Below are positions 1,246-27,212 of a DNA stretch of 28,313 nt, one piece after another (position 1 is the stretch's first letter; every line of letters begins with the position of its first letter). Below the pieces are notes generated by a model that was given only the letters and a program-made list of their open reading frames with translations, ran no database searches and was not told where the DNA came from. The position numbers and the translations under genes were made by a program. Source of the DNA: a virus (lineage: Duplodnaviria > Heunggongvirae > Uroviricota > Caudoviricetes); the IMG/VR virus record IMGVR_UViG_2721755712_000003, positions 1-28,313 of that record, one strand, 5' to 3'.

Positions 1246-2156
1246 TTAGCCGCATGATTTATACTGTTTCCAGTTACAGGCTTCTTGAAGCGGTTTTAGC
1301 GTGGTTGACAGGCCGTTTAAATTGAAAGTTGCACTTACAGGGCTTTCATTATAAGGGGTTATTTTTGCATACATTTTGTTTGAGTTGGCTAGTTTTCTGA
1401 TGAAGTTAATGTCATTGCCTTTATAAAAAACAGCCTTTGTATCTGTAGATACTAGCCAGTTTCGCTCAACTGCTTTCTGTTTATCAAGGCGATACAGCAT
1501 GCTGGTTTGTTCAAGGCCTAAATATACATCCCAATTAAGAAATACTTCGGTTTTCTTTTCTCGGCAAGCTATAAACAGAGTAGGGGTAACCGCTTCTCCA
1601 AATGGAGTTCTTATATAATCATCACTTTCTAACGATAAAATTACATTTTTCGAATCATCAATTGGCGATGTAGTAATGGATGTGTGCCATTTTCCTGTGT
1701 CTGTGGCTTTCTCTAATTTTGATTTAGATTGCGCAACTTTTTCCTGTGGAAATGGTTTATCGTAGCAGTTTATTCTAGTTTCTTTATCGTTTTCTGCTCG
1801 GCATTTAGATATCTCAGAAAGATTTGGTTGCTGAGCCTCTGTTGTTACTAGCTGTTTCGCTTTAGATTTTGAGCTTACAGGCGGAGTAAATGTTGGAGAA
1901 AAAAACGGTCATAACAAGATAAACGTCTGTCATCATCTTTCTCATCAGGGCATTGATCTCTGCTTTCGAATTTTTCAGCAACTGTCGTTCGAGTCGGTTG
2001 TATTGACTTATCATAACAAGAAAGTCTTTCTTTATTATTTTCTATTGCTCGGCACTGGAGTGATGACTTAAAGTTATTATGCTCAGTTGCTGCGTGAGCA
2101 GGTAGCACACTAATTGATATAAATGATGCACCTATAGAAATAATCATATTTTTCAT
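1246..2156 (-). pseudogene. frameshifted gene for a secreted Cys-repeat protein (signal peptide plus three C-x(6-9)-[RK]-[LI]-x-C-Y-D repeats)
   Basis: ORF 1875..2156 (signal peptide MKNMIISIGASFISISVLPAHA, repeats ...KERLSCYDK and ...RRLSCYDRFF) stops at 1875. Reading open in the +1 frame from about 1903 encodes a third repeat (RINCYDKPF) and continues into ORF 1246..1500. The frame switch lies at an A7/T7 homopolymer (1898-1906). AT-rich. Confidence 0.55.
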
Positions 2157-2160
2157 TTTG

Positions 2161-2493
2161 TTATCCCTTTGGTTTAGTAAGAAATACTAAATTTCCGATA
2201 ATGATATTGCAAATAACCCATAAGCCTCCAATAGCAATTAAACCTAAGCCCGTACCAATAACTGTACCGGCTTTTTCGGCATCGGATGTGGCGTTGTTTA
2301 TTATTTCACCCACCTCTCTTAGCCCAACACAAATCGTGTAGATTATAAAAATATTAAATAATATGAAAAAATACTTAATGAGTTCTCCAAAAAATGAACG
2401 TTTAAGTTTTTTCAGTTGTTTGCCACAAGCAGGGCAAGACAATACTGAATCGATCACCTCTTTCTGGCATTCAGGACATTTGATTAATGCCAT
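2161..2493 (-). CDS. zinc-ribbon membrane protein (CPECQ...CPACG followed by two hydrophobic helices)
   Basis: Start ATG 2491-2493 (MALIKCPECQ...) with GGAGG SD at 2502-2506. Stop is 5 bp before the start of the downstream secreted-protein gene, suggesting one operon. AT-rich. Confidence 0.6.
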   Translation of the reverse strand: MALIKCPECQKEVIDSVLSCPACGKQLKKLKRSFFGELIKYFFILFNIFIIYTICVGLREVGEIINNATSDAEKAGTVIGTGLGLIAIGGLWVICNIIIGNLVFLTKPKG

Positions 2494-2549
2494 ATAATCT
2501 GCCTCCTTTGGCTCTCTACTAGCTGACGTTTGTAACAAAACATTTTGAT

Positions 2550-3262: not shown

Positions 3263-4149
3263 AGCGACCTCCCTTAACGTGGTGCTGCCGCTATTCTAAG
3301 TTGCTCACTCTGTTTCCGCTATCCATTCCGGGATTTTTGCCTCAAGCTCAAGCTGCGTGGTAAAGCCGCTGTTATCAATGGTGTGCCCGGCTTTTGCAAT
3401 AATCCAGTCCTGATTATCAATCTCGCTTTTAAATCCTGTTACCGTGCCATGCATTTCGGGGTAGAGCTCTGCACGTCCACGCGCCAGCGTGATGGAGAAT
3501 GATGCGGCTCCGCGTTGTAGTTGCTGCCACTTTGCCGCCGCTGCGCGTCTTGCTGCCTGCTCGTTCTGATAAGTCTTGCGTAACACAAACACATTGCCTT
3601 CCGCGCCTTCCATATAATCACCTTCACGGCTGCTGCTTTTCTCCTTTTTGGGTTTTGGCGGTTTACGGCGTTTCACGCTGACTTTTTTCTTTTTCCCGTA
3701 ATTAAGATCAAGCCAGTAGGCGCGTACCCCCGTATACGCCTCGCGGTCAGCAATGCGGAACTGATGGCGATCGCCGCTGCTGCGTGTAATGGCGAACGAG
3801 GGCAACGGCTGGCCCTGTGCGTTCACGCCACCACCTGGCATGATGAATAACAGATTGCCGCTTTTTACCGTGGTGATTGCACCCAGCATTTCCGCCATGC
3901 GCGTAAGGAAGGACATGTCGCTTTCTTCGGTCTGGTCGGCGTGGTCGATTTCGATATCCATCAGCATTTCGCTGATTTGCGGTTTCAGACCATACCGATG
4001 AGCGATGGCGGATACCACACGCTCAACGGTCACATCATGCCAGGACACCTCACGTTTAACGTTAAATTCATCCCAAAAATCTGCGCTTCTGGCTGAAACA
4101 GTCAGCCTGTCCGGCGGTCCTTCGTGAGCGATTTCATCAACAATGTAAG

Positions 4150-5370
4150 TGTAGATTCAATTGGTCAACGCAACAGTTATGTGAAAACATGGGGTTGCGG
4201 AGGTTTTTTGAATGAGACGAACATTTACAGCAGAGGAAAAAGCCTCTGTTTTTGAACTATGGAAGAACGGAACAGGCTTCAGTGAAATAGCGAATATCCT
4301 GGGTTCAAAACCCGGAACGATCTTCACTATGTTAAGGGATACTGGCGGCATAAAACCCCATGAGCGTAAGCGGGCTGTAGCTCACCTGACACTGTCTGAG
4401 CGCGAGGAGATACGAGCTGGTTTGTCAGCCAAAATGAGCATTCGTGCGATAGCTACTGCGCTGAATCGCAGTCCTTCGACGATCTCACGTGAAGTTCAGC
4501 GTAATCGGGGCAGACGCTATTACAAAGCTGTTGATGCTAATAACCGAGCCAACAGAATGGCGAAAAGGCCAAAACCGTGCTTACTGGATCAAAATTTACC
4601 ATTGCGAAAGCTTGTTCTGGAAAAGCTGGAGATGAAATGGTCTCCAGAGCAAATATCAGGATGGTTAAGGCGAACAAAACCACGTCAAAAAACGCTGCGA
4701 ATATCACCTGAGACAATTTATAAAACGCTGTACTTTCGTAGCCGTGAAGCGCTACACCACCTGAATATACAGCATCTGCGACGGTCGCATAGCCTTCGCC
4801 ATGGCAGGCGTCATACCCGCAAAGGCGAAAGAGGTACGATTAACATAGTGAACGGAACACCAATTCACGAACGTTCCCGAAATATCGATAACAGACGCTC
4901 TCTGGGGCATTGGGAGGGCGATTTAGTCTCAGGTACAAAAAACTCTCATATAGCCACACTTGTAGACCGAAAATCACGTTATACGATCATCCTTAGACTC
5001 AGGGGCAAAGATTCTGTCTCAGTAAATCAGGCTCTTACCGACAAATTCCTGAGTTTACCGTCAGAACTCAGAAAATCACTGACATGGGACAGAGGAATGG
5101 AACTGGCCAGACATCTAGAATTTACTGTCAGCACCGGCGTTAAAGTTTACTTCTGCGATCCTCAGAGTCCTTGGCAGCGGGGAACAAATGAGAACACAAA
5201 TGGGCTAATTCGGCAGTACTTTCCTAAAAAGACATGTCTTGCCCAATATACTCAACATGAACTAGATCTGGTTGCTGCTCAGCTAAACAACAGACCGAGA
5301 AAGACACTGAAGTTCAAAACACCGAAAGAGATAATTGAAAGGAGTGTTGCATTGACAGATTGAATCTACA
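4150..5370 (+). mobile_element. IS30 insertion sequence, complete (1221 bp), flanked by 2-bp target duplication AG
   Basis: Left end TGTAGATTCAATTGGTCAACGCAAC at 4150; right end is its imperfect inverted copy (22 of 25 matches) ending at 5370. AG at 4148-4149 and 5371-5372. Length equals canonical IS30. Confidence 0.95.
4212..5363 (+). CDS. insI: IS30 transposase
   Basis: 383-aa ORF MRRTFTAEEKASVFELWKNGTGFSEIANILG... recognised as the E. coli IS30 transposase (HTH N-terminus, DDE core). Confidence 0.95.
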   Translation: MRRTFTAEEKASVFELWKNGTGFSEIANILGSKPGTIFTMLRDTGGIKPHERKRAVAHLTLSEREEIRAGLSAKMSIRAIATALNRSPSTISREVQRNRGRRYYKAVDANNRANRMAKRPKPCLLDQNLPLRKLVLEKLEMKWSPEQISGWLRRTKPRQKTLRISPETIYKTLYFRSREALHHLNIQHLRRSHSLRHGRRHTRKGERGTINIVNGTPIHERSRNIDNRRSLGHWEGDLVSGTKNSHIATLVDRKSRYTIILRLRGKDSVSVNQALTDKFLSLPSELRKSLTWDRGMELARHLEFTVSTGVKVYFCDPQSPWQRGTNENTNGLIRQYFPKKTCLAQYTQHELDLVAAQLNNRPRKTLKFKTPKEIIERSVALTD

Positions 5371-5794
5371 AGTGCCTTTTTCTGTCAGCGGTTCTCCCTT
5401 CCAGCCAATGAGAACCGTCAGGCGCGCGCCCCGTGGCGGTAGCTGCAACTGACCATCCGCATCATCCAGCGTGATGGTGAGCTGGTCCGCCTCAAATCCC
5501 CGGTTGTCGGTCAGTGACAGGCTCATCAGGCGCTCTGCCACGCCTGACAGCGTTTTACCCTCCGCGAGAATATCAAAATCCGGCATTTTTACGGGGTCTG
5601 TGCCCTGACTGAGCAATTGCATGGTGGTGTCGGTCATCTGCTCCCTCCCTGTGCGGCATGGTCGCATGTGCGTGCGGAGGGGGTTACTGCTTTTTGTTGT
5701 CGCCGTGGCGAGAGAACGGCGCAGGGGTGAGATTACGCGCGTGGTGGGTGATGATTGTTGCCGAATCATTTAACGGATACAAGGGGCTGAAGCT

Positions 5795-6979
5795 ATGAGT
5801 GAAACTCGTTTTCATGGTGCCCGTGTTACGGAAAATACCGACCTGGTAACAGCGATTAACGATGTTGATTCCAGCGTTATCGGTATCGTGGCAACGGCGG
5901 ATGATGCGGACGCGAAGCTGTTCCCGCTGAACAAGCCCACACTGCTGACCCGCGTCAATGACGTGCTGGGAAAATGCGGGACAACGGGGACGCTTTATCG
6001 TGCGCTTAAGGCCATCGCAGACCAGGTGAGTACAAAGGTGATCGTCGTTCGCGTGGCTGAACACAAAGAAGAAGACGGAAAAACGCAGGATCAACTGGTT
6101 ATCGGTGGTTCTGAATCTGACGGCAGCTATACGGGGATGTATGCGCTGCTTGTTGCAGAGCAGGATGAAAGCATCGGATACCGTCCGCGTATTCTGGCCG
6201 CGCCGGAGCTGGACACGGAGGCGGTAACAAAATCCCTGTGCGTGATTGCGGGTAAACTGCGCGCGTTTGTGTATGCCTCATGTCACGGCTGTAACACGAT
6301 GGCTGAGGCGATTACCTACCGCCAGAAATTCAACGAACGTGAGGTGATGCTCTTATGGCCGGACTTCATCGCCTACAACCCGAAAAGTGGCAAAAACGAA
6401 ACGTTCCCCGCGCCTGCCTATGCGTGCGGCCTTCGTGCGTACATTGACCATGAGCAGGGTTGGCACAAATCGCTGTCCAACGTTCCGGTTAAAAATGTGC
6501 TGGGGATGTCCAGGCATGTGTTCTGGTCGTTGCAGGCCGAAGACAGTGATGCCAACAGCCTCAACAACAAAGAAATCACGACCATTATTCGTCGCAACGG
6601 GTTCCGCTTCTGGGGCAACCGCACACCGGAAACGAACGCCTACATCTTTGAGGTGTATACCCGAACCGCACAGGTGCTGGCTGATTCAATTGCGGAAGCG
6701 CAGTTTGAAACCATCGATAGTCCACTGACGCCTGCGAACGTGAAGGATGTTATCAGTGCCATCAGGGCAAAACTGGATTCACTGGTGACTGCCGGGAAAC
6801 TGATTGGGGCGTCGTGCTGGTATGACGTGGTGGATAACAGCACCACGAATTTACGTCAGGGGCGTGTGCGTATTCGCTACAAATATACGCCCGTTCCTCC
6901 GCTGGAAGACATGGAGCTTTACCAGTCGTTTACTGATGAATTCTTTGGTCCCGCATTTGCGGTGCTGGGAGGTGCCTGA
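5795..6979 (+). CDS. FI: contractile tail sheath protein
   Basis: 394 aa, AAGGGG SD; conserved blocks FPLNKP, WPDF, GFRFWGNRT, YKYTPVPPLE matching P2 gpFI. On the opposite strand to the other late genes. Confidence 0.95.
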   Translation: MSETRFHGARVTENTDLVTAINDVDSSVIGIVATADDADAKLFPLNKPTLLTRVNDVLGKCGTTGTLYRALKAIADQVSTKVIVVRVAEHKEEDGKTQDQLVIGGSESDGSYTGMYALLVAEQDESIGYRPRILAAPELDTEAVTKSLCVIAGKLRAFVYASCHGCNTMAEAITYRQKFNEREVMLLWPDFIAYNPKSGKNETFPAPAYACGLRAYIDHEQGWHKSLSNVPVKNVLGMSRHVFWSLQAEDSDANSLNNKEITTIIRRNGFRFWGNRTPETNAYIFEVYTRTAQVLADSIAEAQFETIDSPLTPANVKDVISAIRAKLDSLVTAGKLIGASCWYDVVDNSTTNLRQGRVRIRYKYTPVPPLEDMELYQSFTDEFFGPAFAVLGGA

Positions 6980-11532: not shown

Positions 11533-12020
11533 ATGCTGAATAATAGAGATATGAATATTAATGAACTTAAAGACTGTATTCACTATGAAGTAATCGGTAG
11601 CGAGCGTCCTTTCTCCTGGCGAAAGGCAATTGTTCGCGCAATAAAACATAGAAGACTTCGTTATTTATTTTGGTGGCGCATAGCCAAATACCTTTTTGAT
11701 AAAGGCGGATACTGCCGGAAGATTGCGGGGAAAATAGAACGTTTCATTCTTGATAAATATAATGTAACAGTCCCTTTAACTGTAAATATAGGGAAAGGCT
11801 TTGATATTTCTTATCTCAACAGTGTTGTTATCGGTCACAAAGTAACAATCGGTGAAAATTGTTCAATAAAACCGGGGGTAACTATTGGGCTACGTGGTGA
11901 TTTTAATGATATGGATATTGTTATAGGACATAATGTGACCATTGGTTGTAATGCCACCATTCTTGGTGGCAAAGTGCGTATAGGAAACAATGTCACAATA
12001 GGTGCTCATGCATTGGTAAC
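11533..12020 (+). pseudogene. left-handed beta-helix (hexapeptide-repeat) sugar O-acetyltransferase-like gene, WcaB/CysE-like, probably 3'-truncated
   Basis: AT-rich ORF with tandem [LIV]-G-x-x-x-x-[IV] hexapeptide repeats (VVIGHKVTIGENCSIKPGVTIG..., IVIGHNVTIG..., VRIGNNVTIGAHALV). Base composition switches at about 12010-12020, beyond which the ORF is antisense of the fibre gene. Confidence 0.6.
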
Positions 12021-12465
12021 CACCACCTTCAAGAACTTCAAGGAGTCCCTGACCATAACTTCCTTCTTCCGGATAGTTGCGGTCAAATGAAGCGATTGAG
12101 CCACTACTGTTTCGCCATAAACCAAGATGCTCTGCGCCTCCGAGCGTGTTCAGGTCAATGGTTGTGCTCAGGGGGCGTGTTGCAGACTGAACCTGACGCC
12201 AGTAACTCCACGGACCGTCTGAACCATTCCATGTGCCAGAAAGGTTGCGCATATAAACATTGCCTGTTCTGGTGGTGTAACGCTGCATTCCTGCAAAATT
12301 ACCGCCATTGAATACCTCCAGTACACCGACTGCACCGTCTTCAGGGAAATTTTTAGCAGCCGTCGCGTTAGTGGATGTAGCTTTAGACCAGACGCCAAGA
12401 TAAGCCTTAACGGGACCAAATGTATTCAAGTCAGCATCAAGCGGCATTTCGCCATTGTTTTTCAT
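12021..12465 (-). pseudogene. tail fibre C-terminal receptor-binding fragment (N-terminal shaft missing, C-terminus cut)
   Basis: Two tandem copies of a fibre-tip-like motif (DLNTFGPV...GVLEVFNGGNFAGMQRYTT...W..W and DLNTLGG...GLLEVLEGGG); the second copy breaks off at about 12021. Starts 5 bp after the J stop with no gpI gene between. Confidence 0.6.
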
Positions 12466-18238: not shown

Positions 18239-19243
18239 TTAGCTGTCGGCGAACTTCAGGCCTGTGACCATCGCGCACTTGCCATAGTCTTCAACGACAT
18301 AAGCGTCATTGATGGACTGGTAGGTGGCGATGCGGTTGTATTCCGGCTCGTCTTTCATCAGGCGACGCATTGAGCCTCTCTGCCAGTAAATTGACAGGTT
18401 GTTGAATGAGGTGATCAGCATCGTTGCATCCGGGAAGAACGGCGCAAGGAATACATCCAGCCCACCAATGGTGCGCGATGACAGGATGAGCTGTCCGGCG
18501 AGTAATTCCGCATTGGGATTCTGGCCGCTGATGCTGTTCAGCACGGGCAGACGCAGCGAGTTAAACAGGTTGCGCCCCATAATCACCACGAGGTCGTCTG
18601 CTTCCTTGTGCCATTCATCCAGCAGGGATGAGCGCGCGTCCTGTACCAGTGCATCAGCGTTCGCATACTTACCCGCGTGCGCCACTGTGTTGTCCATGTT
18701 GCGGGAAGTCAGCGTCACGTCATTCATTACGCGTTCACTGGCATCGGTTCTGATGTGCTCCAGCCAGCCCACGTTAACGTCCTGAAGCAGCTTGTTGGTG
18801 CTGAAATTGGATTTTTCCGCGTGTGATGTGCCGTTAAAGCCGATCATGATGCGGTCAAGCGCCACCTGCCGGGCAATCTGTGTGCTGATGCGCGACTGAA
18901 AATCGCTGTGAGCCGCCCAGGCATCAAGCTTCGGGTATGAAATAAACGTGTCGTAGTTCACCTGTTCACACTGGTACTGACGAGCCTTCATATCGACAGC
19001 GTTAATCGGATTACGGCGATCTGTGCCGTCATAACTGGTATTCGTGCGCGCAATCGGCCCGGTGGTGTCCAGGAGAACTTTTTCGCCTTTCTGGTCAGTT
19101 ACACCGATTACATTAATTCTTTTCGTAAATTCGGTACTTTCCTTTGAAGCGTTTTCAAAACGCTGTTGTACCGATGGATTGACGGTAAATCGCGATACCA
19201 GCGCAGAAACCGGGATATTGTTAAGCGACGCCTGCTGCGTCAT
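18239..19243 (-). CDS. N: major capsid protein gpN (5' end clipped relative to P2 N)
   Basis: 334 aa; FTVNPSV, RINVIGV and DAYVVEDYG blocks match P2 gpN. Homologous reading continues about 11 codons upstream of the first ATG into the P ribosome-binding site with no start codon. Confidence 0.9.
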   Translation of the reverse strand: MTQQASLNNIPVSALVSRFTVNPSVQQRFENASKESTEFTKRINVIGVTDQKGEKVLLDTTGPIARTNTSYDGTDRRNPINAVDMKARQYQCEQVNYDTFISYPKLDAWAAHSDFQSRISTQIARQVALDRIMIGFNGTSHAEKSNFSTNKLLQDVNVGWLEHIRTDASERVMNDVTLTSRNMDNTVAHAGKYANADALVQDARSSLLDEWHKEADDLVVIMGRNLFNSLRLPVLNSISGQNPNAELLAGQLILSSRTIGGLDVFLAPFFPDATMLITSFNNLSIYWQRGSMRRLMKDEPEYNRIATYQSINDAYVVEDYGKCAMVTGLKFADS

Positions 19244-19288
19244 GTAGCAGCCCAGCTTGTTACGGGCATTAATTACTCAGGGGGAGCA

Positions 19289-20542
19289 ATGATTCAGGAC
19301 GCTTTTGTGCGCCAGCGTGCGCGGCAACTTTACTGGCAGGGTTATCCGCCCGCAGAAATATCACGTCTGATGGGAATAAACCCGAACACGATTTATGCGT
19401 GGAAAAAACGCGACCAGTGGGATGAAACGCCCCCCGTGCAGCGTGTCACGCAGTCCATCGATGCGCGCCTCATCCAGCTTACTGAAAAACAGAATAAAAC
19501 AGGCGGTGACTTTAAGGAAATAGACCTGCTGACCCGGCAGCTTAAAAAGCTGCATGATGGCCAGCCGGATGTGATGGCCGCAGGAAAGAAAGGCCGGGCG
19601 AAAAAACTTAAAAATCATTTCACGCCGGAACAGATTGCCGCACTGCGGGAAAAAATCATCAGCAGGCTGGAGTGGCATCAGCGGGGCTGGTTTGACTCCC
19701 TGACACTTTGCAGGGAAGCCGGGATACGTAACAGGATGATCCTGAAATCCCGACAGATTGGGGCGACCTGGTATTTTGCACAGGAAGCTCTGCTGATGGC
19801 GCTGCGTGACGATGTGGCGCAACCTTACCAGCGTAACCAGATTTTTTTGTCTGCGTCGCGTCGTCAGGCGTTCCAGTTTAAAAGCATTATTCAGAAGGTC
19901 GCGGCTGAAGTTGATGTGGAGCTGAAAGGGGGCGATAAAATCATCCTCTCCAACGGCGCAGAGCTGCATTTTCTCGGCACTTCTGCTGCGTCGGCACAGT
20001 CCTATACGGGCAATTTTTATTTTGATGAATTTTTCTGGGTCAGTCGCTTTGCTGAACTGCGCAAGGTGGCTGGCGCTATGGCAACCCTCAGCGGACTGCG
20101 GCGCACCTACTTCTCCACGCCATCCACCGAAACGCACGAGGCGTACGCCTACTGGAACGGCGACCGCTGGAACGAGAAAAAGGCCTCGCATAAACGCCAG
20201 CGTTTTTCTGTGGACTGGAAAACGCTGCATAACGGGCTTATCTGCCCTGACCGGACTTGGCGGCAAATTGTCACGCTGGAAGATGTGGTTAATCACGGCT
20301 GGAAACACACCGATATCGACGAAATTCGTGATGAAAACACCGAAGACGAGTTCCTCAATCTCTATATGTGTGAGTTTGTCCGCGAAGGGGAATCGGCATT
20401 TAACCTGAATATCCTGATTGGCTGCGGTGTTGACGGATACGACGACTGGAAAGACTGGAAACCTTTTGCTCCCCGCCCGATGGGGAATCGTCCGGTATGG
20501 ATTGGGTATGACGCAAACGGCAGCAGTGGCAACGGCGACACC
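19289..20542 (+). pseudogene. P: terminase large (ATPase) subunit gpP, 3'-truncated at about aa 418
   Basis: GGGGGAG SD before ATG 19289; terminase-like sequence up to ...GYDANGSSGNGDT, after which the ORF is the antisense of gene A. Confidence 0.85.
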
Positions 20543-20544
20543 GT

Positions 20545-21822
20545 GCGGATGCCATACCAGCGCAGGCCGTCGCGGTTCAGTTTCTTGCGGACCGCCGCAA
20601 AAAACGAGTTAACCAGGTAATCGCTGGAGTCGCGCATAGTGGCCCCGTTCCATTTGGGATTCGGATGACCGTTCTCCGTTGTTGCGTGGTATTTTGACGG
20701 GCAGGTGACAGTCAGAAACACCGCTCTGTCGCCACGGGCTTCGGCCAGAAGTTCCAGCCCCTTCATGGTGGCCATCATTTCTGCCTTACGGTGAACCGGG
20801 TTACTTACTCCCGCGTAATACACTGTCTCAAGATCAATCGTGAACCCGTCTTCGTTTTCCAGCATGAAACTTTTCAGGAAATCGCGTGTTTTCTCGCGCT
20901 GTGCGCGAAACTCGCTTAACGCATCCTGGCTCAGATAGGGCGATGTTTTTCTGGAAACCAGACAGGCGGCGCGGAGTTGTTCTTCTCTCCACTCGCAACG
21001 TAACAGCCACAGTTTGCGTTTCCACCATTCCGCACAGGTCAGGCGAAGGATTGCGCCCGGCAGCAGCTCCGTGTCTGGTTCGTTCCTCCGGCCTTTGTCT
21101 GTTGTCAGTGCGTCATAATGCGGAGGCATGGCGTGCAGGTGTAACGCCATGCGGGCCAGCATCTGATACGCCTTCAGCGTTACATCCATGGTCAGCTCGC
21201 CATCAGTCGCACCAAAGCCATCGCAGAGTTTTTCGAAGGTGCTGCTGAACATCGCCGCCGTCATGGTGGCCAGCGTCTGTATCTGGTGTTTGTTGAGCTG
21301 CGGCAGGTAAAGCAAATCGTCCAGGCGTTCGCGTCCGGCAAGGGAGCGATAACCCGGTGTCAGCCAGTGTCCGTCAGTGCGATCCAGACGTTCGAATATT
21401 TTGCGCAGGGTTCCGCGTGCATAGCGTTCTGCCTGCCAGCTCTTTTTGCCTTTCCGGCGATCGACTTCCTGTTTTTTGCGCAGGAAGGAGAGGTGGCGAA
21501 TAAGCGGATCGCGCAGATAGGACGGCAGCAGGCGCAGCGAGGCCATGGCTTCATCCACCGCGCCGCGTGCCTGTCTTCTGGCGTCTCCTGCCAGCGTGAT
21601 GGTTTTGTCCTGTTTTTCCTGTGCGTCCAGGCTTTTATTAATCAGGTTGCCCAGTGGCGTGGCAGAGAACGCCGCATCAGCCTTTTCCTGTCGGCGCTCG
21701 TTCTCTGCCTGGTAGGCATCCAGCCAGGAGGAAAGCGCGGATTCAGGTGCGGGGATCCCCGTTCCTTCACGCCCCACTGCGTGGCGCGGTTGTTGCCAGT
21801 CCCTGATGTACTCTGTCGTCAT
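20545..21822 (-). pseudogene. A: replication initiation endonuclease gpA, 3'-truncated before the HUH active-site region
   Basis: N-terminal about 425 aa is gpA-like (…FLTVTCPSKYH…RWYGIR) and stops resembling gpA where the Val-Glu-Pro-His-His-Asp-Gly block would follow; beyond that the ORF is antisense of P. Confidence 0.85.
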
Positions 21823-21828
21823 ACTGAT

Positions 21829-22194
21829 TTACTGCGTCATACCGTTCAGGGTGTCACGGCAAACGGCAGCCAGCCGCTGAATTTCCAGCACGGTGTCTTC
21901 TGTGTCGGCATAGCGATGTGTGATGCGGATGCTGTCGGCAATCACATCGACGATTGCAGAGGATGGGCGCTGGTAAATGCCAATAACGGACGGAGTGCCA
22001 CCTTCAATGCGGTAAAGCCTGTAATTTCCCTCGTGGCTGTCAATCATGTAGCGACCATCAATAACAATCTTTCCGTCAGCGAGCTGCGGTACAGGCAGGG
22101 ATTTCAGGTACATGTCATAACGTTCACGCACGCGAACGGCAAGATCACGCTCTGTGTTGAGCAGGTATTCAAGAAAGTCGTTGGCGAGAATCAT
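21829..22194 (-). CDS. hypothetical early protein, 121 aa, immediately upstream of A
   Basis: Stop 6 nt before the A start; no recognisable motif. Confidence 0.5.
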   Translation of the reverse strand: MILANDFLEYLLNTERDLAVRVRERYDMYLKSLPVPQLADGKIVIDGRYMIDSHEGNYRLYRIEGGTPSVIGIYQRPSSAIVDVIADSIRITHRYADTEDTVLEIQRLAAVCRDTLNGMTQ

Positions 22195-22266
22195 TGCGGC
22201 AATCCTCTTGTTACAGATGTGCGAAGGCCTCCTGCCGCAAGGTGCAGGAAAGGCCCGGAACAGGAA

Positions 22267-22497
22267 TTAATGGAGTTTGTTTTGCTGCTGGATGAGCTGC
22301 TGAAGCTCGCGCAGATCATCCGCCAGATAACTGAAAACAGCGGATGAGTAGAGGTTTGAAAGTTCGCAGCTACGCTCATGCAGCATATTGATGTGCATGA
22401 TTTTAGCGACGCGGAATGCGCGGGAAAGTCTGCGGTTGATTTCAGTCTGGATGTGACGACGCTCCGCGATAGCGCGGTGCTGTTTGCGGTTTGCCAT
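22267..22497 (-). CDS. hypothetical basic 76-aa protein
   Basis: AAAGAGG SD 7 nt before ATG 22495-22497; preceded by a structured, GC-rich leader. Confidence 0.45.
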   Translation of the reverse strand: MANRKQHRAIAERRHIQTEINRRLSRAFRVAKIMHINMLHERSCELSNLYSSAVFSYLADDLRELQQLIQQQNKLH

Positions 22498-22674
22498 GGT
22501 GTGGCCTCTTTGGTTGTAAGTTTTGAAAACTCACCATCCAGAGCTGCGAAACTGTGGGTGGCGAGACGTACGGGGTTCGCAGTACCGGCAACCAAAGAAC
22601 CCGGCCCGACCGAAGTCGGCCCCGTACGCCCCGCCATAATTCTGACGCGAAAAAAACGTGGCAATACAGTACGC

Positions 22675-22702
22675 ACAAAAAAACCGCTGGCGCGGTTGTG
22701 CG
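22675..22702 (-). terminator. intrinsic terminator (hairpin followed by T7 on the minus strand)
   Basis: Minus-strand RNA reads CGCACAACCGCGCCAGCGGUUUUUUUGUGCG; the T-run is the complement of 22675-22681. Lies downstream of the SPFH gene. Confidence 0.55.
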
Positions 22703-22864
22703 CTTTGGTTGTCAGCAGGCTGCGAAACCCGGCACCCGTTTTATGAGGTGCAGCGAAAATGTAACCTGACTGATTGCGGCATGGCAAGCGGTTTTTTTGT
22801 GAGAACGGCATACTAAAAAATCCTGATACTGCTCCGGCCAGCGGTTTGCACTGGCCGGGTGTCA

Positions 22865-23695
22865 TTACTTCACGGGAACGAACGGAACAGCGGTGTTACT
22901 GGTCATGTATTGCGGCAGCGTGCCGTTCCATTTGTTGATTGCTTCCAGCTCCATAACGCCGGGATTCTGGCGCAGAGCTTCGCCGCGTAAACGAATGGCG
23001 TCGGCTTCAGCCTGGGCTTTTGTGCGAATGGCATCGGCCTGTCCGGCAGCTTCTGCGCGCAACATGTTGGCTTCTGCTTCGCGTTGCTTGACTTCCTGTT
23101 CGCGTTGCAGGGTTTTCTGGTTTGCCGTGACTTTGGCGTTAATGCTGTCGATAACGGTTGGCGGATATTCCGGTTTACCGACATAAGAGAGGCTCATGAC
23201 CTGAATACCGATGGGGGTCATCTCTTCCTGAATATCTTTAAGTGCTGAATCCAGCAGTTCAGACTTACCACCGTCGATAAACTTATCGGTGGTCATTTTG
23301 CTGGCCAGTCGGTTGAGTGCATCGGCGATCTTCTGGCGCAGGTCAGTGTCGGTAATGTCGTCCACGCCTTTGCGGTAGGTCTGAAACACCGTGGTAACTT
23401 TGGATGGATCAACTTTGTAGGCCACGCCGATGTGATAGCCGATGGTTGTGCCGTCACTCATCTGGAAGTTGAACGGCTCATCGTAACTCTTCATTTGTTT
23501 GAAGGTCGGGAAGATGTAAACCTCTGTATTCCAGCCTGTCCAGTAGCGGCCAACGCCAACCACTTCACCGACGCCTTTGTCGTCGCCCAGTTTGTTGACT
23601 TTGATGCCCACATTACCTGGCTCAACGCGATCGCAACCAACCAGCAGGATGGCGGCAAAAAGCGGGAGAATCTGAAAGAGTCTGAATTTCTTCAT
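22865..23695 (-). CDS. SPFH/band-7 (stomatin/prohibitin-like) lipoprotein
   Basis: 276 aa, lipobox LLVGC, SPFH-like core followed by an Ala/Gln/Glu-rich coiled coil (QREQEVKQREAEANMLRAEAAGQADAIRTKAQAEADAIRLRGEALRQ). Start overlaps the upstream gene stop (ATGA). Confidence 0.75.
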   Translation of the reverse strand: MKKFRLFQILPLFAAILLVGCDRVEPGNVGIKVNKLGDDKGVGEVVGVGRYWTGWNTEVYIFPTFKQMKSYDEPFNFQMSDGTTIGYHIGVAYKVDPSKVTTVFQTYRKGVDDITDTDLRQKIADALNRLASKMTTDKFIDGGKSELLDSALKDIQEEMTPIGIQVMSLSYVGKPEYPPTVIDSINAKVTANQKTLQREQEVKQREAEANMLRAEAAGQADAIRTKAQAEADAIRLRGEALRQNPGVMELEAINKWNGTLPQYMTSNTAVPFVPVK

Positions 23696-23895
23696 TGTTT
23701 GATTTCCTTGATGTACTTACTGAAAAGGCGAACAACGCCTGCCGGGTACAGCATGGCAATGAAAATTCCCAGCAATACCAGGAAGGAGCTGTCTGATGAA
23801 ATCATTCGGGGGAGTAGTCCTGCATACAGAATGAGAGAGACGAGGACGCATACCAGCGCCCACATGTATGCGCGAAACCAGGTCTTTTTGTTCAT
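23692..23895 (-). CDS. small two-helix membrane protein, partner of the SPFH gene
   Basis: 67 aa with two hydrophobic helices; translationally coupled to the SPFH gene. Confidence 0.55.
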   Translation of the reverse strand: MNKKTWFRAYMWALVCVLVSLILYAGLLPRMISSDSSFLVLLGIFIAMLYPAGVVRLFSKYIKEIKQ

Positions 23896-23906
23896 ATCGC
23901 GGTCCT

Positions 23907-24206
23907 TTACTGGTTAAGGAAAAAATCGAAAACGTTGTCGATGCGTTGCAGCGGCTCCTGCTGCATTGCTTCCGGCGTTTCTGATTCACCTGGTGACTCC
24001 AGCGTCGCGCAAAAATCCTTGATTTCATGATGGAGCGTCAGACGAATGGCAGGAGCCATGGTTCTGGCGTGCTCCAGCTCATCCAGCAGTGCCAGCACGG
24101 CAGATGGCGAGAGCATTGCGCGAAACGCCAGTAATTTTTGATGCGTTGCCATTCGTTGCAGGTCAGTCGCCAGTTCGCGTAATTCCTGGTGGTTGATGGC
24201 GCTCAT
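23907..24206 (-). CDS. hypothetical protein, 99 aa
   Basis: ORF start overlaps the upstream gene stop by 4 nt. Confidence 0.45.
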   Translation of the reverse strand: MSAINHQELRELATDLQRMATHQKLLAFRAMLSPSAVLALLDELEHARTMAPAIRLTLHHEIKDFCATLESPGESETPEAMQQEPLQRIDNVFDFFLNQ

Positions 24207-24469
24207 GCTCTGGCTTCCTTCAGTAGCAGGTTAAACATGTGAGTAAGTGGATTGCTACACCCGAACGGCATCGGGTTTACGTGGTAAGAAGCCTGGCCTC
24301 CTGCTTTGCGAGCGCGACCACCTGTGCTGCGGTTTGTTCTGATGACTAAGCCGCCGCGCCAGAGTCGGCGTAACTCAGCATTGATGGCTGTGGTTGGGGT
24401 ATTCAGTGCTGCGGCGATTTCTCCGCCGCTACAACCCGGATGGGTAGCGATGTAGTCCAGAATGGTCAT
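24203..24469 (-). CDS. small winged-helix-like DNA-binding protein, 88 aa
   Basis: MTILDYIATHPGCSGGEIAAALNTPTTAINAELRRLWRGGLVIR resembles an HTH/winged-helix fold; coupled to flanking genes. Confidence 0.5.
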   Translation of the reverse strand: MTILDYIATHPGCSGGEIAAALNTPTTAINAELRRLWRGGLVIRTNRSTGGRARKAGGQASYHVNPMPFGCSNPLTHMFNLLLKEARA

Positions 24470-24669
24470 CTGCGTGACTCCTGTACCTGTCGGATAAGGT
24501 TCACCCGCACCACATTCGTGGCGCAGAAGTAAGTGCCGTCAGTGAGATAGATGTGATGTGCATCCTTTTCCGAACGATGTTTGTCGATAGTGGTAATCAG
24601 TCGTTCGTCGACCTCGTATTCGCGGTCTCTGGAGGTGAAGCGAACGACAGGAAAATGCTTAATTGCCAT
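24466..24669 (-). CDS. hypothetical protein, 67 aa
   Basis: ATG 24667-24669 overlaps the upstream stop (TAATG). Confidence 0.45.
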   Translation of the reverse strand: MAIKHFPVVRFTSRDREYEVDERLITTIDKHRSEKDAHHIYLTDGTYFCATNVVRVNLIRQVQESRR

Positions 24670-24932
24670 TACACCCTCTTGGCTTTATGTCTGTATTTGA
24701 GCTTTTCTATTTCTTCTTTTTGTTCTTTTAATGTTCTTATGGCTGTGAAAACATTAAAGCCCATAAAATGTGCTCTGTTCGCTAATGTAATACTGGCACC
24801 TTTGTTAGCTATATCATCTTCAATATCAGTGAAATACTGACTGATTTCTTTTAGTGCGGCGCAAAGCTTTGCGAGATCTCGCCCCCTGTCAAAATATGCA
24901 TCCTTCAGTATTTTTTGATTTGTCCTGAGCAT
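24669..24932 (-). CDS. hypothetical AT-rich cargo protein, about 87 aa
   Basis: Internal ATG at 24930-24932 has a GAGGT SD; the longer ORF from 24986 lacks one. Distinctly AT-rich. Confidence 0.45.
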   Translation of the reverse strand: MLRTNQKILKDAYFDRGRDLAKLCAALKEISQYFTDIEDDIANKGASITLANRAHFMGFNVFTAIRTLKEQKEEIEKLKYRHKAKRV

Positions 24933-26778: not shown

Positions 26779-26891
26779 TGTGGTAATCTCCCTAATTCGT
26801 TCGAATGGCTCAAAATGGCTTATATCGGCTTATTTGAGTGTTTTTATGTTTGTGCCCGATGTGGCATGTTGCGATGGAGGATATGCCCGAT
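26779..26891. promoter_or_regulatory. cox/C divergent immunity switch region with phased direct repeats (candidate operators)
   Basis: GGCT at 26807, 26817 and 26827 (exact 10-bp phasing; AATGGCT twice); TGCCCGAT-N-TGGCAT at 26853-26867 and 26884-26898 (14 of 15 identical), the second overlapping the C start codon. Confidence 0.55.
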
Positions 26892-27212
26892 ATGGCATCT
26901 TTGTCAAGCATGGGTGAAAAATTTCGCCTGATTCGTGAAGCAGAAGGTATGACCCGCCAGGAGTTTGCGGATTGTGTTGGGCTGCCTTATGGGACGGTAA
27001 CTAACTATGAGGTGAGGGGGAAGCAAGTAACAGAGGGTGCCTTACTTAAGGTTACGAAACACCCTAAATTTAAGAAGTATGCTTATTGGTTATTAACAGA
27101 TGAAACGATGCCGGAGGTCGGGCAAATTTCTCCGGCTCTCTCTCTTGATGGTTCCTGCAATTCGGAGGGAGATCGCGTTTCAACCGAAACAATCCAAAAA
27201 TTATCCCGCTGA
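26892..27212 (+). CDS. C: immunity repressor C (HTH)
   Basis: ...CVGLPYGTVTNYE...KHPKFKKYAYWLLTDETMPEVGQISPALS resembles P2 C as remembered (...GVPYGTLSYYE...QTPQFTKYTLWFMTNQIAPESGQIAPALA). Start chosen at ATG 26892; the longer ORF from 26838 is less likely. Confidence 0.8.
   Translation: MASLSSMGEKFRLIREAEGMTRQEFADCVGLPYGTVTNYEVRGKQVTEGALLKVTKHPKFKKYAYWLLTDETMPEVGQISPALSLDGSCNSEGDRVSTETIQKLSR

Follow-up and report, generated by a model that had tools for sequence, protein, structure and literature searches.

We analysed a stretch of 28,313 nucleotides (nt) of viral DNA (IMG/VR record IMGVR_UViG_2721755712_000003, positions 1 to 28,313), hereafter the window, which is an Escherichia coli chromosomal segment running from flk to pdxB and carrying a P88-like prophage (genus Xuanwuvirus, Peduoviridae). 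Our analysis centered on a gene pair at 22865-23895 that encodes a small membrane protein, here called the partner, and an SPFH lipoprotein. The locus is organized as follows (aa, amino acids; ORF, open reading frame):

23692-23895, minus strand: 67-aa inner-membrane hairpin protein, the partner (ORF, hydropathy, phrog_1130)
22865-23695, minus strand: 276-aa SPFH (prohibitin/HflK-like) lipoprotein (Band_7, lipobox, AlphaFold model)
23692-23695, minus strand: ATGA stop/start overlap of the partner stop with the SPFH start (sequence)

An AAGGA ribosome-binding site precedes each of the two ORFs, and the ATGA overlap implies that they are translationally coupled. When the window copies were compared with those of P88, the UTI89 prophage, a Stx2 phage and a P1-like phage, ratios of nonsynonymous to synonymous substitution rates (dN/dS) were 0.04-0.10 for the SPFH gene and 0.16-0.31 for the partner. 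By this measure both genes are under purifying selection and are therefore real genes and not chance ORFs. The initial annotation had read the locus as a coupled pair of a 67-aa two-helix membrane protein and a 276-aa SPFH lipoprotein with a long coiled coil, and this description is borne out by ORFs, hydropathy, the Band_7 match, the lipobox and the structural model alike. We are highly confident that the pair is a two-gene membrane-scaffold module made up of a protein forming a hairpin of two transmembrane helices (2-TM) and a prohibitin/HflK-like SPFH lipoprotein.

The SPFH protein matches the Pfam family Band_7 (PF01145) with an E value of 6.5e-31 and 108.2 bits (cut-off 23.6) over residues 23-209, covering profile positions 2-176 of 176. 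Its signal peptide ends in the lipobox LVGC, which agrees with the pattern [LVI][ASTVI][GAS]C and places the lipidated cysteine at position 21 and an aspartate, Asp22, at position +2. In E. coli lipoproteins, Asp at +2 leads to retention in the inner membrane, which predicts that the SPFH lipoprotein stays there. A monomer was modeled with AlphaFold on an alignment of 85 homologues. The model (predicted local distance difference test score, pLDDT, 91.1) shows a beta-rich SPFH domain followed by a continuous 65-residue helix and a flexible tail, and the protein can be divided into the following parts:

N-terminus: signal peptide and lipobox
Residues ca. 21-176: SPFH domain
Residues 179-243: long helix
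Residues 245-255: short helix
C-terminus: conserved KWNGxLP tail

Within the tail, W256 and G258 are invariant and P261 is nearly invariant among the 85 homologues. The order of parts in the predicted model, namely a signal/anchor helix, an SPFH domain, a long helix and a C-terminal segment, is that of a cage subunit. In good agreement with this, the top Foldseek matches were full-length, with E values down to 3e-14, and comprised the cage subunits of HflC/HflK, erlin, prohibitin, stomatin, flotillin and QmcA. The protein further matches the PHROG family phrog_200 ('lipoprotein') at E 6e-112, covering positions 82-359 of the 379-position profile. This offset is consistent with the profile including forms in which partner and lipoprotein are fused, as described below.

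Based on hydropathy, the partner has two hydrophobic segments (residues ca. 5-34 and 31-59) and basic termini. We infer a topology with a cytoplasmic N-terminus, a first transmembrane helix, a short periplasmic loop, a second transmembrane helix and a basic, cytoplasmic C-terminus. The putative loop holds a conserved h-P-x-h-h-S motif (LLPRMISS) just past the first helix. An alignment of partners from the window and from Stx2, N4-like and P1-like phages revealed ten invariant positions (R8, Y10, Y24, L27, P29, S33, V40, G43, A47 and P51). The partner matches phrog_1130 ('membrane protein') at E 1.3e-22, a family filed under the category 'moron, auxiliary metabolic gene and host takeover'. It matched no Pfam family at E <= 0.01, including NfeD and Imm, and no NCBIfam family. 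With 67 aa and two transmembrane segments there would be no room for an OB-fold. Of the two proteins, for both of which a Pfam search had been proposed, only the SPFH protein matched a Pfam family. Both window proteins are clear members of their PHROG families, which are sequence clusters only.

Searching the Protein Data Bank (PDB) with a profile of the family recovered prohibitin-1 over nearly the full length (E 1.7e-10), HflK/HflC (E 1.6e-7) and QmcA (E 9e-6), while the window sequence alone reached only HflK (E 1e-4). The prohibitins (PHB1/PHB2) are represented here by prohibitin-1 as the best relative at the level of sequence profiles. With HflK/HflC (PDB 7VHP, 7WI3, 9CZ2) the window protein has in common a full-length cage-type SPFH architecture and a predicted periplasmic orientation on the inner membrane. 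In contrast to HflK and HflC, which are anchored by an N-terminal transmembrane helix and form a tandem K/C heteropair, it carries a lipid anchor and is encoded by a single SPFH gene with a separate 2-TM partner. An NCBIfam scan of the SPFH protein yielded sub-threshold matches to HflC, HflK and FloT only, with 25.7 bits against a cut-off of 134.4 for TIGR01932 (hflC) and 23.4 against 159.4 for TIGR01933 (hflK). An assignment as HflK or HflC was rejected based on these scores, the presence of only one SPFH gene and the lipid anchor.

Operons of the SPFH-NfeD type (QmcA-YbbJ, PDB 8Z5G; YqiJ-YqiK; archaeal stomatin with an NfeD protease) resemble the pair in that a gene for a small membrane protein shares a transcript with the SPFH gene and is sometimes fused to it. 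They differ in that the window partner has no NfeD or OB-fold domain and lies upstream, and since no Pfam match to NfeD was found we rejected this assignment as well. The SPFH domain of QmcA (YbbK) faces the cytoplasm (PMC2636767), whereas that of the window protein is predicted to be periplasmic. Prohibitin and HflK/HflC are described as facing the periplasm or the intermembrane space and as enclosing AAA proteases of the FtsH family (PMC13086221, PMC2636767). Hinderhofer et al. (2009, PMC2636767) described the subfamily SPFH4, or 'prokaryotic prohibitin', as a diverse group that lacks an NfeD partner, probably faces the periplasm and is uncharacterized in bacteria. The window protein fits SPFH4 as matched by that paper's description only, and term searches of the paper returned neither a lipobox anchor nor a 2-TM partner.

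The two-gene arrangement recurs widely. In all cases an ORF of 62-78 aa with two predicted helices overlaps or abuts the SPFH start. The pair adjoins xis in Stx2a lambdoid phages, follows an S24-peptidase repressor gene on the same strand in Klebsiella lambdoid prophages, and is present in the P1-like phage-plasmid RCS47 as well as on contigs of ca. 110 kb resembling SSU5-type phage-plasmids. It is also found among the early genes of virulent N4-like phages, Erwinia phage Pastis being one carrier. The partner was adjacent to or overlapping the SPFH gene in every Stx2, N4-like, P1-like, SSU5-like and Klebsiella lambdoid context examined, the overlap measuring 4 nt in both the Stx2 phage and the Klebsiella prophages, 16 nt in Pastis and 20 nt in RCS47. 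A Yersinia pestis contig of ca. 108 kb (L019) carries an SPFH protein 77% identical to that of the window together with a 66-aa partner; its size is close to that of the ca. 110-kb contigs, which hold the similar copy P0118. Using tblastn, SPFH relatives were detected in 798 of 50,697 phage records, most at less than 60% identity, including jumbo phages, Kayvirus, phiCbK-like phages, haloviruses, crAss-like phages and Lak phages. An exhaustive search of representative sequences returned 2,890 family representatives at E <= 1e-3, of which 223 had E <= 1e-30.

Partner and SPFH protein also occur as a single polypeptide. Among the best 150 family representatives, 22-23 (ca. 15%) are in-frame fusions of a two-helix hairpin, a lipobox and an SPFH domain, and this natural fusion argues for a physical partnership of the two proteins. 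In a model of one fusion (P0124), three N-terminal helices precede the SPFH domain. The lipobox cysteine is retained in at least 90% of 22 fusions (e.g. P0124, P0130, P0135, P0136, P0139, P0145); signal peptidase II may split the hairpin from the lipoprotein, or the lipoprotein may be initiated internally, and some fusions carry an internal Met-Lys-Lys.

We further inspected loci from different bacterial genomes, drawing 80 with a 12-sequence SPFH alignment, of which 78 were analysable. A hairpin gene lies upstream of the SPFH gene in 63 of these and two further loci (L059, L068) are fusions. Dyella species account for about 35 of the loci, and Leptospira for several. In one Dyella locus the neighbors are BlaR1/BlaI-like genes, hemerythrin and ribonucleotide reductase, with upstream ORFs of equal sizes in a second Dyella locus, and in one Leptospira locus they are succinate dehydrogenase and ArsR. 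Based on these ordinary chromosomal neighborhoods, the module is cellular as well as viral. In two loci from Shigella flexneri and E. coli (L016, L017; ca. 5220-5920), IS1 with InsA/InsB-like ORFs replaces the partner upstream of an intact SPFH gene. Regarding variation among phage copies (comparison of the window with L003, L005 and L095), P88-like, Stx2 and P1-like copies share 93% protein identity in the mature SPFH domain, with partners only 25-45% identical and differing signal peptides. DNA similarity of the window pair to the Stx2 copy is confined to 22898-23635. Recombination breakpoints therefore seem to fall slightly inward of either end of the SPFH gene, and the pair evolves as a mosaic.

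In its own phage lineage, the module behaves as an optional insertion, delimited by blastn against PV468777 (L002), a P88-like phage that does not carry the pair:

22802-23906, minus strand: cargo insertion of 1,105 bp relative to PV468777

In PV468777, 18 bp stand in for the module, and the window segments 22000-22801 and 23907-24680 on either side are collinear with it. The other close relatives vB_EcoM-569R5, P884B11 and phiSM match the flanking half of the region only. The pair is thus accessory cargo, as initially annotated. Its recurrence at this position in other P2-like phages is mixed: P88 and the UTI89 prophage carry it and PV468777 does not. In P88 (NC_026014 / KP063541) the same two genes occupy the same position as gp11 ('membrane protein') and gp12 ('lipoprotein' or 'putative SPFH domain protein'), with 98.5% and 98.9% protein identity to the window pair, respectively, and ca. 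95% DNA identity over the region. The flanks, an Ead-like ORF upstream and the derepression protein and gpA downstream, are common to both. The two copies differ in that the prophage around the window pair is degraded, with a truncated gpA and an IS30-family insertion. Across 5,426 complete E. coli genomes, the SPFH gene was present at a DNA identity of at least 80% in 392 (ca. 7%), the whole pair of the window type in 144, and some part of the surrounding 2.2 kb matched in 1,535. Carriers include enterotoxigenic (ETEC), Shiga toxin-producing (STEC) and uropathogenic (UPEC) strains. The genes are already annotated, as gp11/gp12 in P88 and as 'SPFH domain-containing protein' in RefSeq. The P88 paper makes no mention of gp11 or gp12. 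It had been stated that no P2-family function is established for the pair, and this holds: none is assigned in any record, and no functional study was found in the literature.

Several features of the surrounding DNA bear on when the pair would be expressed:

26878-26907, minus strand: early-promoter-like site TTGACA-18-TATCCT between the C repressor gene (plus strand) and cox (minus strand) (promoter scan, gene order)
23896-23906, minus strand: 11-nt spacer with an AAGGA site, from the stop of an Ead/Ea22-like ORF (23907-24206) to the partner ATG
22834-22858, minus strand: 10-bp GC-rich hairpin that starts 6 nt past the SPFH stop and is part of the inserted module

On the minus strand, the pair is preceded by a Pe-like promoter, cox, several small ORFs, a MarR-like ORF and the Ead/Ea22-like ORF, and followed by isrK, a C4 antisense RNA, a 'derepression protein' ORF, another ORF and replication gene A. 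In the intact relatives P88 and UTI89 prophage, gene A encodes a full 940-aa gpA and is followed by ParM. As isrK, the C4 RNA, the derepression-protein ORF and gene A continue downstream on the same strand, the pair lies in the middle of the early transcription unit and not at the end of the early operon as initially proposed. A promoter scan found no sigma-70-like site on the minus strand from 25321 to 22787. The upstream spacer of only 11 nt and the lack of a promoter-like site of its own place the pair inside the repressor-controlled early operon, and the site at 26878-26907 is, by inference, the only promoter driving it.

The hairpin past the SPFH gene is strong (dG about -20 to -23, z -4.8) and kept in P88 and UTI89. 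It was not called by the terminator scan, and since its U6 run begins 12 nt beyond the stem it is not a canonical intrinsic terminator, which makes the terminator that the pair was said to own doubtful. Scans of the window, RCS47 and the Stx2 phage found no canonical terminator after and no promoter before the pair. The pair therefore has neither an own promoter nor an own intrinsic terminator, the two marks of a moron. P88 is an inducible, plaque-forming phage (PMC5285337), so that the hairpin presumably cannot fully block gene A expression. Taken as a whole, the initial annotation was right about the genes and their cargo status, while the operon end, the own terminator and the P2 layout turned out to be wrong or weak; with respect to the latter, the backbone belongs to the P2-like family Peduoviridae and is that of P88 (Xuanwuvirus), not of P2 itself.

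The window prophage is defective. Whereas gpA has 940 aa in both P88 and UTI89, its ORF in the window (20362-21822) stops after 486 aa; on the opposite strand it is overlapped by a partial large-terminase ORF (19166-20620). ParM and the rest of that region, as found in P88 and UTI89, are missing between gpA and terminase. In addition, an IS30-family transposase ORF (4212-5363, HTH_38 and rve) adjoins a gpD fragment (3305-4048). Downstream of the pair, Rfam matches on the minus strand place isrK at 22677-22751 (65.9 bits) and the C4 antisense RNA at 22554-22641 (87.1 bits), each with a promoter-like site, followed by the 76-aa 'derepression protein' ORF (PF25738, 22267-22497, minus strand). This stretch looks like a P1/P4-style module of antisense RNA and antirepressor just upstream of gene A; RefSeq labels part of 22267-22751 an 'ash family' pseudogene. 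Elsewhere in the window, a 185-aa hexapeptide-repeat acyltransferase ORF (11533-12090, plus strand; RefSeq 'serine acetyltransferase') lies among the tail genes and is probably cargo as well. The interval from flk to the ogr end of the prophage (1246-2538, minus strand) holds short ORFs with partial matches to VasI/TagO-like, type VI secretion-associated proteins and to zinc ribbons. A similar RefSeq genome annotates a Hok/Gef toxin gene nearby, and this region looks like fragments and not like a working system.

The explanation that accounts best for the whole of these observations, and to which we give about an even chance of being correct, is that the pair forms an early-made prohibitin/HflK-like inner-membrane scaffold for lytic growth. 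Upon derepression or infection, both proteins would be made in roughly equal amounts together with the early genes. The lipoprotein would be exported, lipidated at Cys21 and held in the inner membrane via Asp at +2, so that the SPFH domain faces the periplasm. Like prohibitin and HflK/HflC, it would oligomerize into a cage, using its 65-residue helix and conserved KWNGxLP tail. The hairpin partner may provide the transmembrane part that is absent from the lipid-anchored subunit. The resulting cage would fence off a patch of inner membrane and alter the access of an FtsH-type quality-control protease to phage or host membrane and regulatory substrates, which amounts to a host-takeover or membrane-management role in lytic growth and not to a defence expressed by the lysogen. 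The periplasm-facing inner-membrane cage is the probable part of this proposal. FtsH as the specific target is tentative. FtsH-type quality control is the most likely target because both of the nearest characterized families enclose FtsH-type AAA proteases. The initial annotation had already suggested modulation of a host protease such as FtsH, and this may be regarded as its best-grounded idea given that the nearest solved relatives are prohibitin-1 and HflK/HflC, with the reservation that the argument is one of homology.

A number of points weigh against this scaffold. Homology to FtsH-binding families appears to be the module's sole tie to FtsH, and E. coli already has HflK/C. Arg occupies +3, next to the retention signal, and position +2 is Ser, Glu or Thr in non-enteric homologues, which leaves inner-membrane retention at the level of a prediction. 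Presence in some close phage relatives and absence from others is a pattern more usual for conflict genes than for genes of membrane management. No experiment on any family member was found in the literature, and a prophage SPFH protein from Pasteurella, not shown to belong to the window family, was found in outer-membrane vesicles (PMC9872710).

A patchy presence would be in keeping with exclusion of superinfecting phages during infection, the lipoprotein and hairpin blocking DNA entry or the tail-tip enzymes of a second phage, a logic analogous to that of T4 Imm/Sp or the Ltp lipoprotein of TP-J34. The predicted envelope location and early expression, as well as the position among early genes of virulent N4-like phages, also fit such a function. 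We nevertheless consider it unlikely, since the pair shows no similarity to a known exclusion family in Pfam, PHROGs or PADLOC, temperate carriers have it in operons that are repressed in lysogens, and chromosomal copies occur in non-phage surroundings in one Dyella and one Leptospira locus. The latter copies would suit a generic membrane stabilizer, that is, a cage guarding inner-membrane integrity and proton-motive force and delaying premature lysis or envelope-stress responses, as would the spread over unrelated phage types including jumbo and virulent phages. Bacterial SPFH proteins have been linked to membrane-stress tolerance (PMC8581546, PMC10434171; abstracts). However, no link to lysis cassettes was seen in any context examined, and a function of general use should be shared more evenly by close relatives, so that this explanation too seems improbable to us.

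Protection of the lysogen itself, by abortive infection or another anti-phage mechanism, is very improbable. The initial annotation had raised abortive infection and superinfection exclusion by the lysogen, and the location of the pair as prophage cargo beside other accessory genes is in keeping with this. However, no PADLOC-DB v2 model matches the SPFH protein, and the sole PADLOC match of the partner is weak, comprising 21 residues of PDC-M18B (E 0.0078, 14.2 bits). Pfam and NCBIfam matched no nuclease, NTPase or other catalytic domain and only the SPFH family. Further, the pair has no promoter of its own, also occurs in virulent phages and has housekeeping surroundings, not defence islands, in the Dyella and Leptospira loci, and we therefore do not follow these defence readings. 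A role in lysogenic conversion, in which a surface- or vesicle-exposed lipoprotein would act on the animal host, has been claimed for PM0222 of Pasteurella multocida, a prophage SPFH protein reported from cultures as well as outer-membrane vesicles; it activated TLR1/2, and virulence was attenuated upon its deletion (PMC9872710). Although ETEC, STEC and UPEC strains are among the carriers, such a virulence role is highly unlikely here, given that the lipoprotein is predicted from Asp at +2 to stay in the inner membrane, the pair lies in a repressed early operon, and the module is found in soil bacteria and in phages of plant and environmental hosts.

The literature on phage SPFH proteins is sparse. 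Searches for phage, prophage and anti-phage SPFH proteins, P88 and periplasmic SPFH lipoproteins returned no functional study of a phage SPFH lipoprotein. Phage genome papers mention SPFH genes and speculate on HflK/C, lysogeny, adsorption or DNA entry, and hold no data on how the SPFH protein acts (PMC10269572, PMC8540360, PMC13239085, PMC4936722). What is added here are the obligate hairpin partner, its fusions with SPFH and the presence of the module in cells as well as phages. A more far-reaching reading, which we regard as doubtful, is that the pair is a phage-made HflK/C-like cage on the periplasmic face that captures FtsH or seals a membrane patch early in infection. It would then represent a widespread, unrecognized host-takeover or exclusion device of P2-like, lambdoid, P1-like, SSU5-like and N4-like phages, derived from a prohibitin-like module of cells, the 2-TM partner of which seems to have escaped description so far.

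In conclusion, the pair can be viewed as an uncharacterized variant within known SPFH systems, for which protease modulation would be the best-supported mechanism. For the window itself the practical message is modest, given that the genes are already annotated and common in E. coli and that there is no evidence of a defence system. More broadly, a large SPFH subfamily is defined as an obligate two-gene unit, sometimes fused, that is common to bacterial chromosomes and many phage lineages. If this unit does act on FtsH-type quality control, it would represent a general phage strategy to take over inner-membrane proteostasis and would offer a simple homo-oligomeric model for prohibitin/HflK-type cages.

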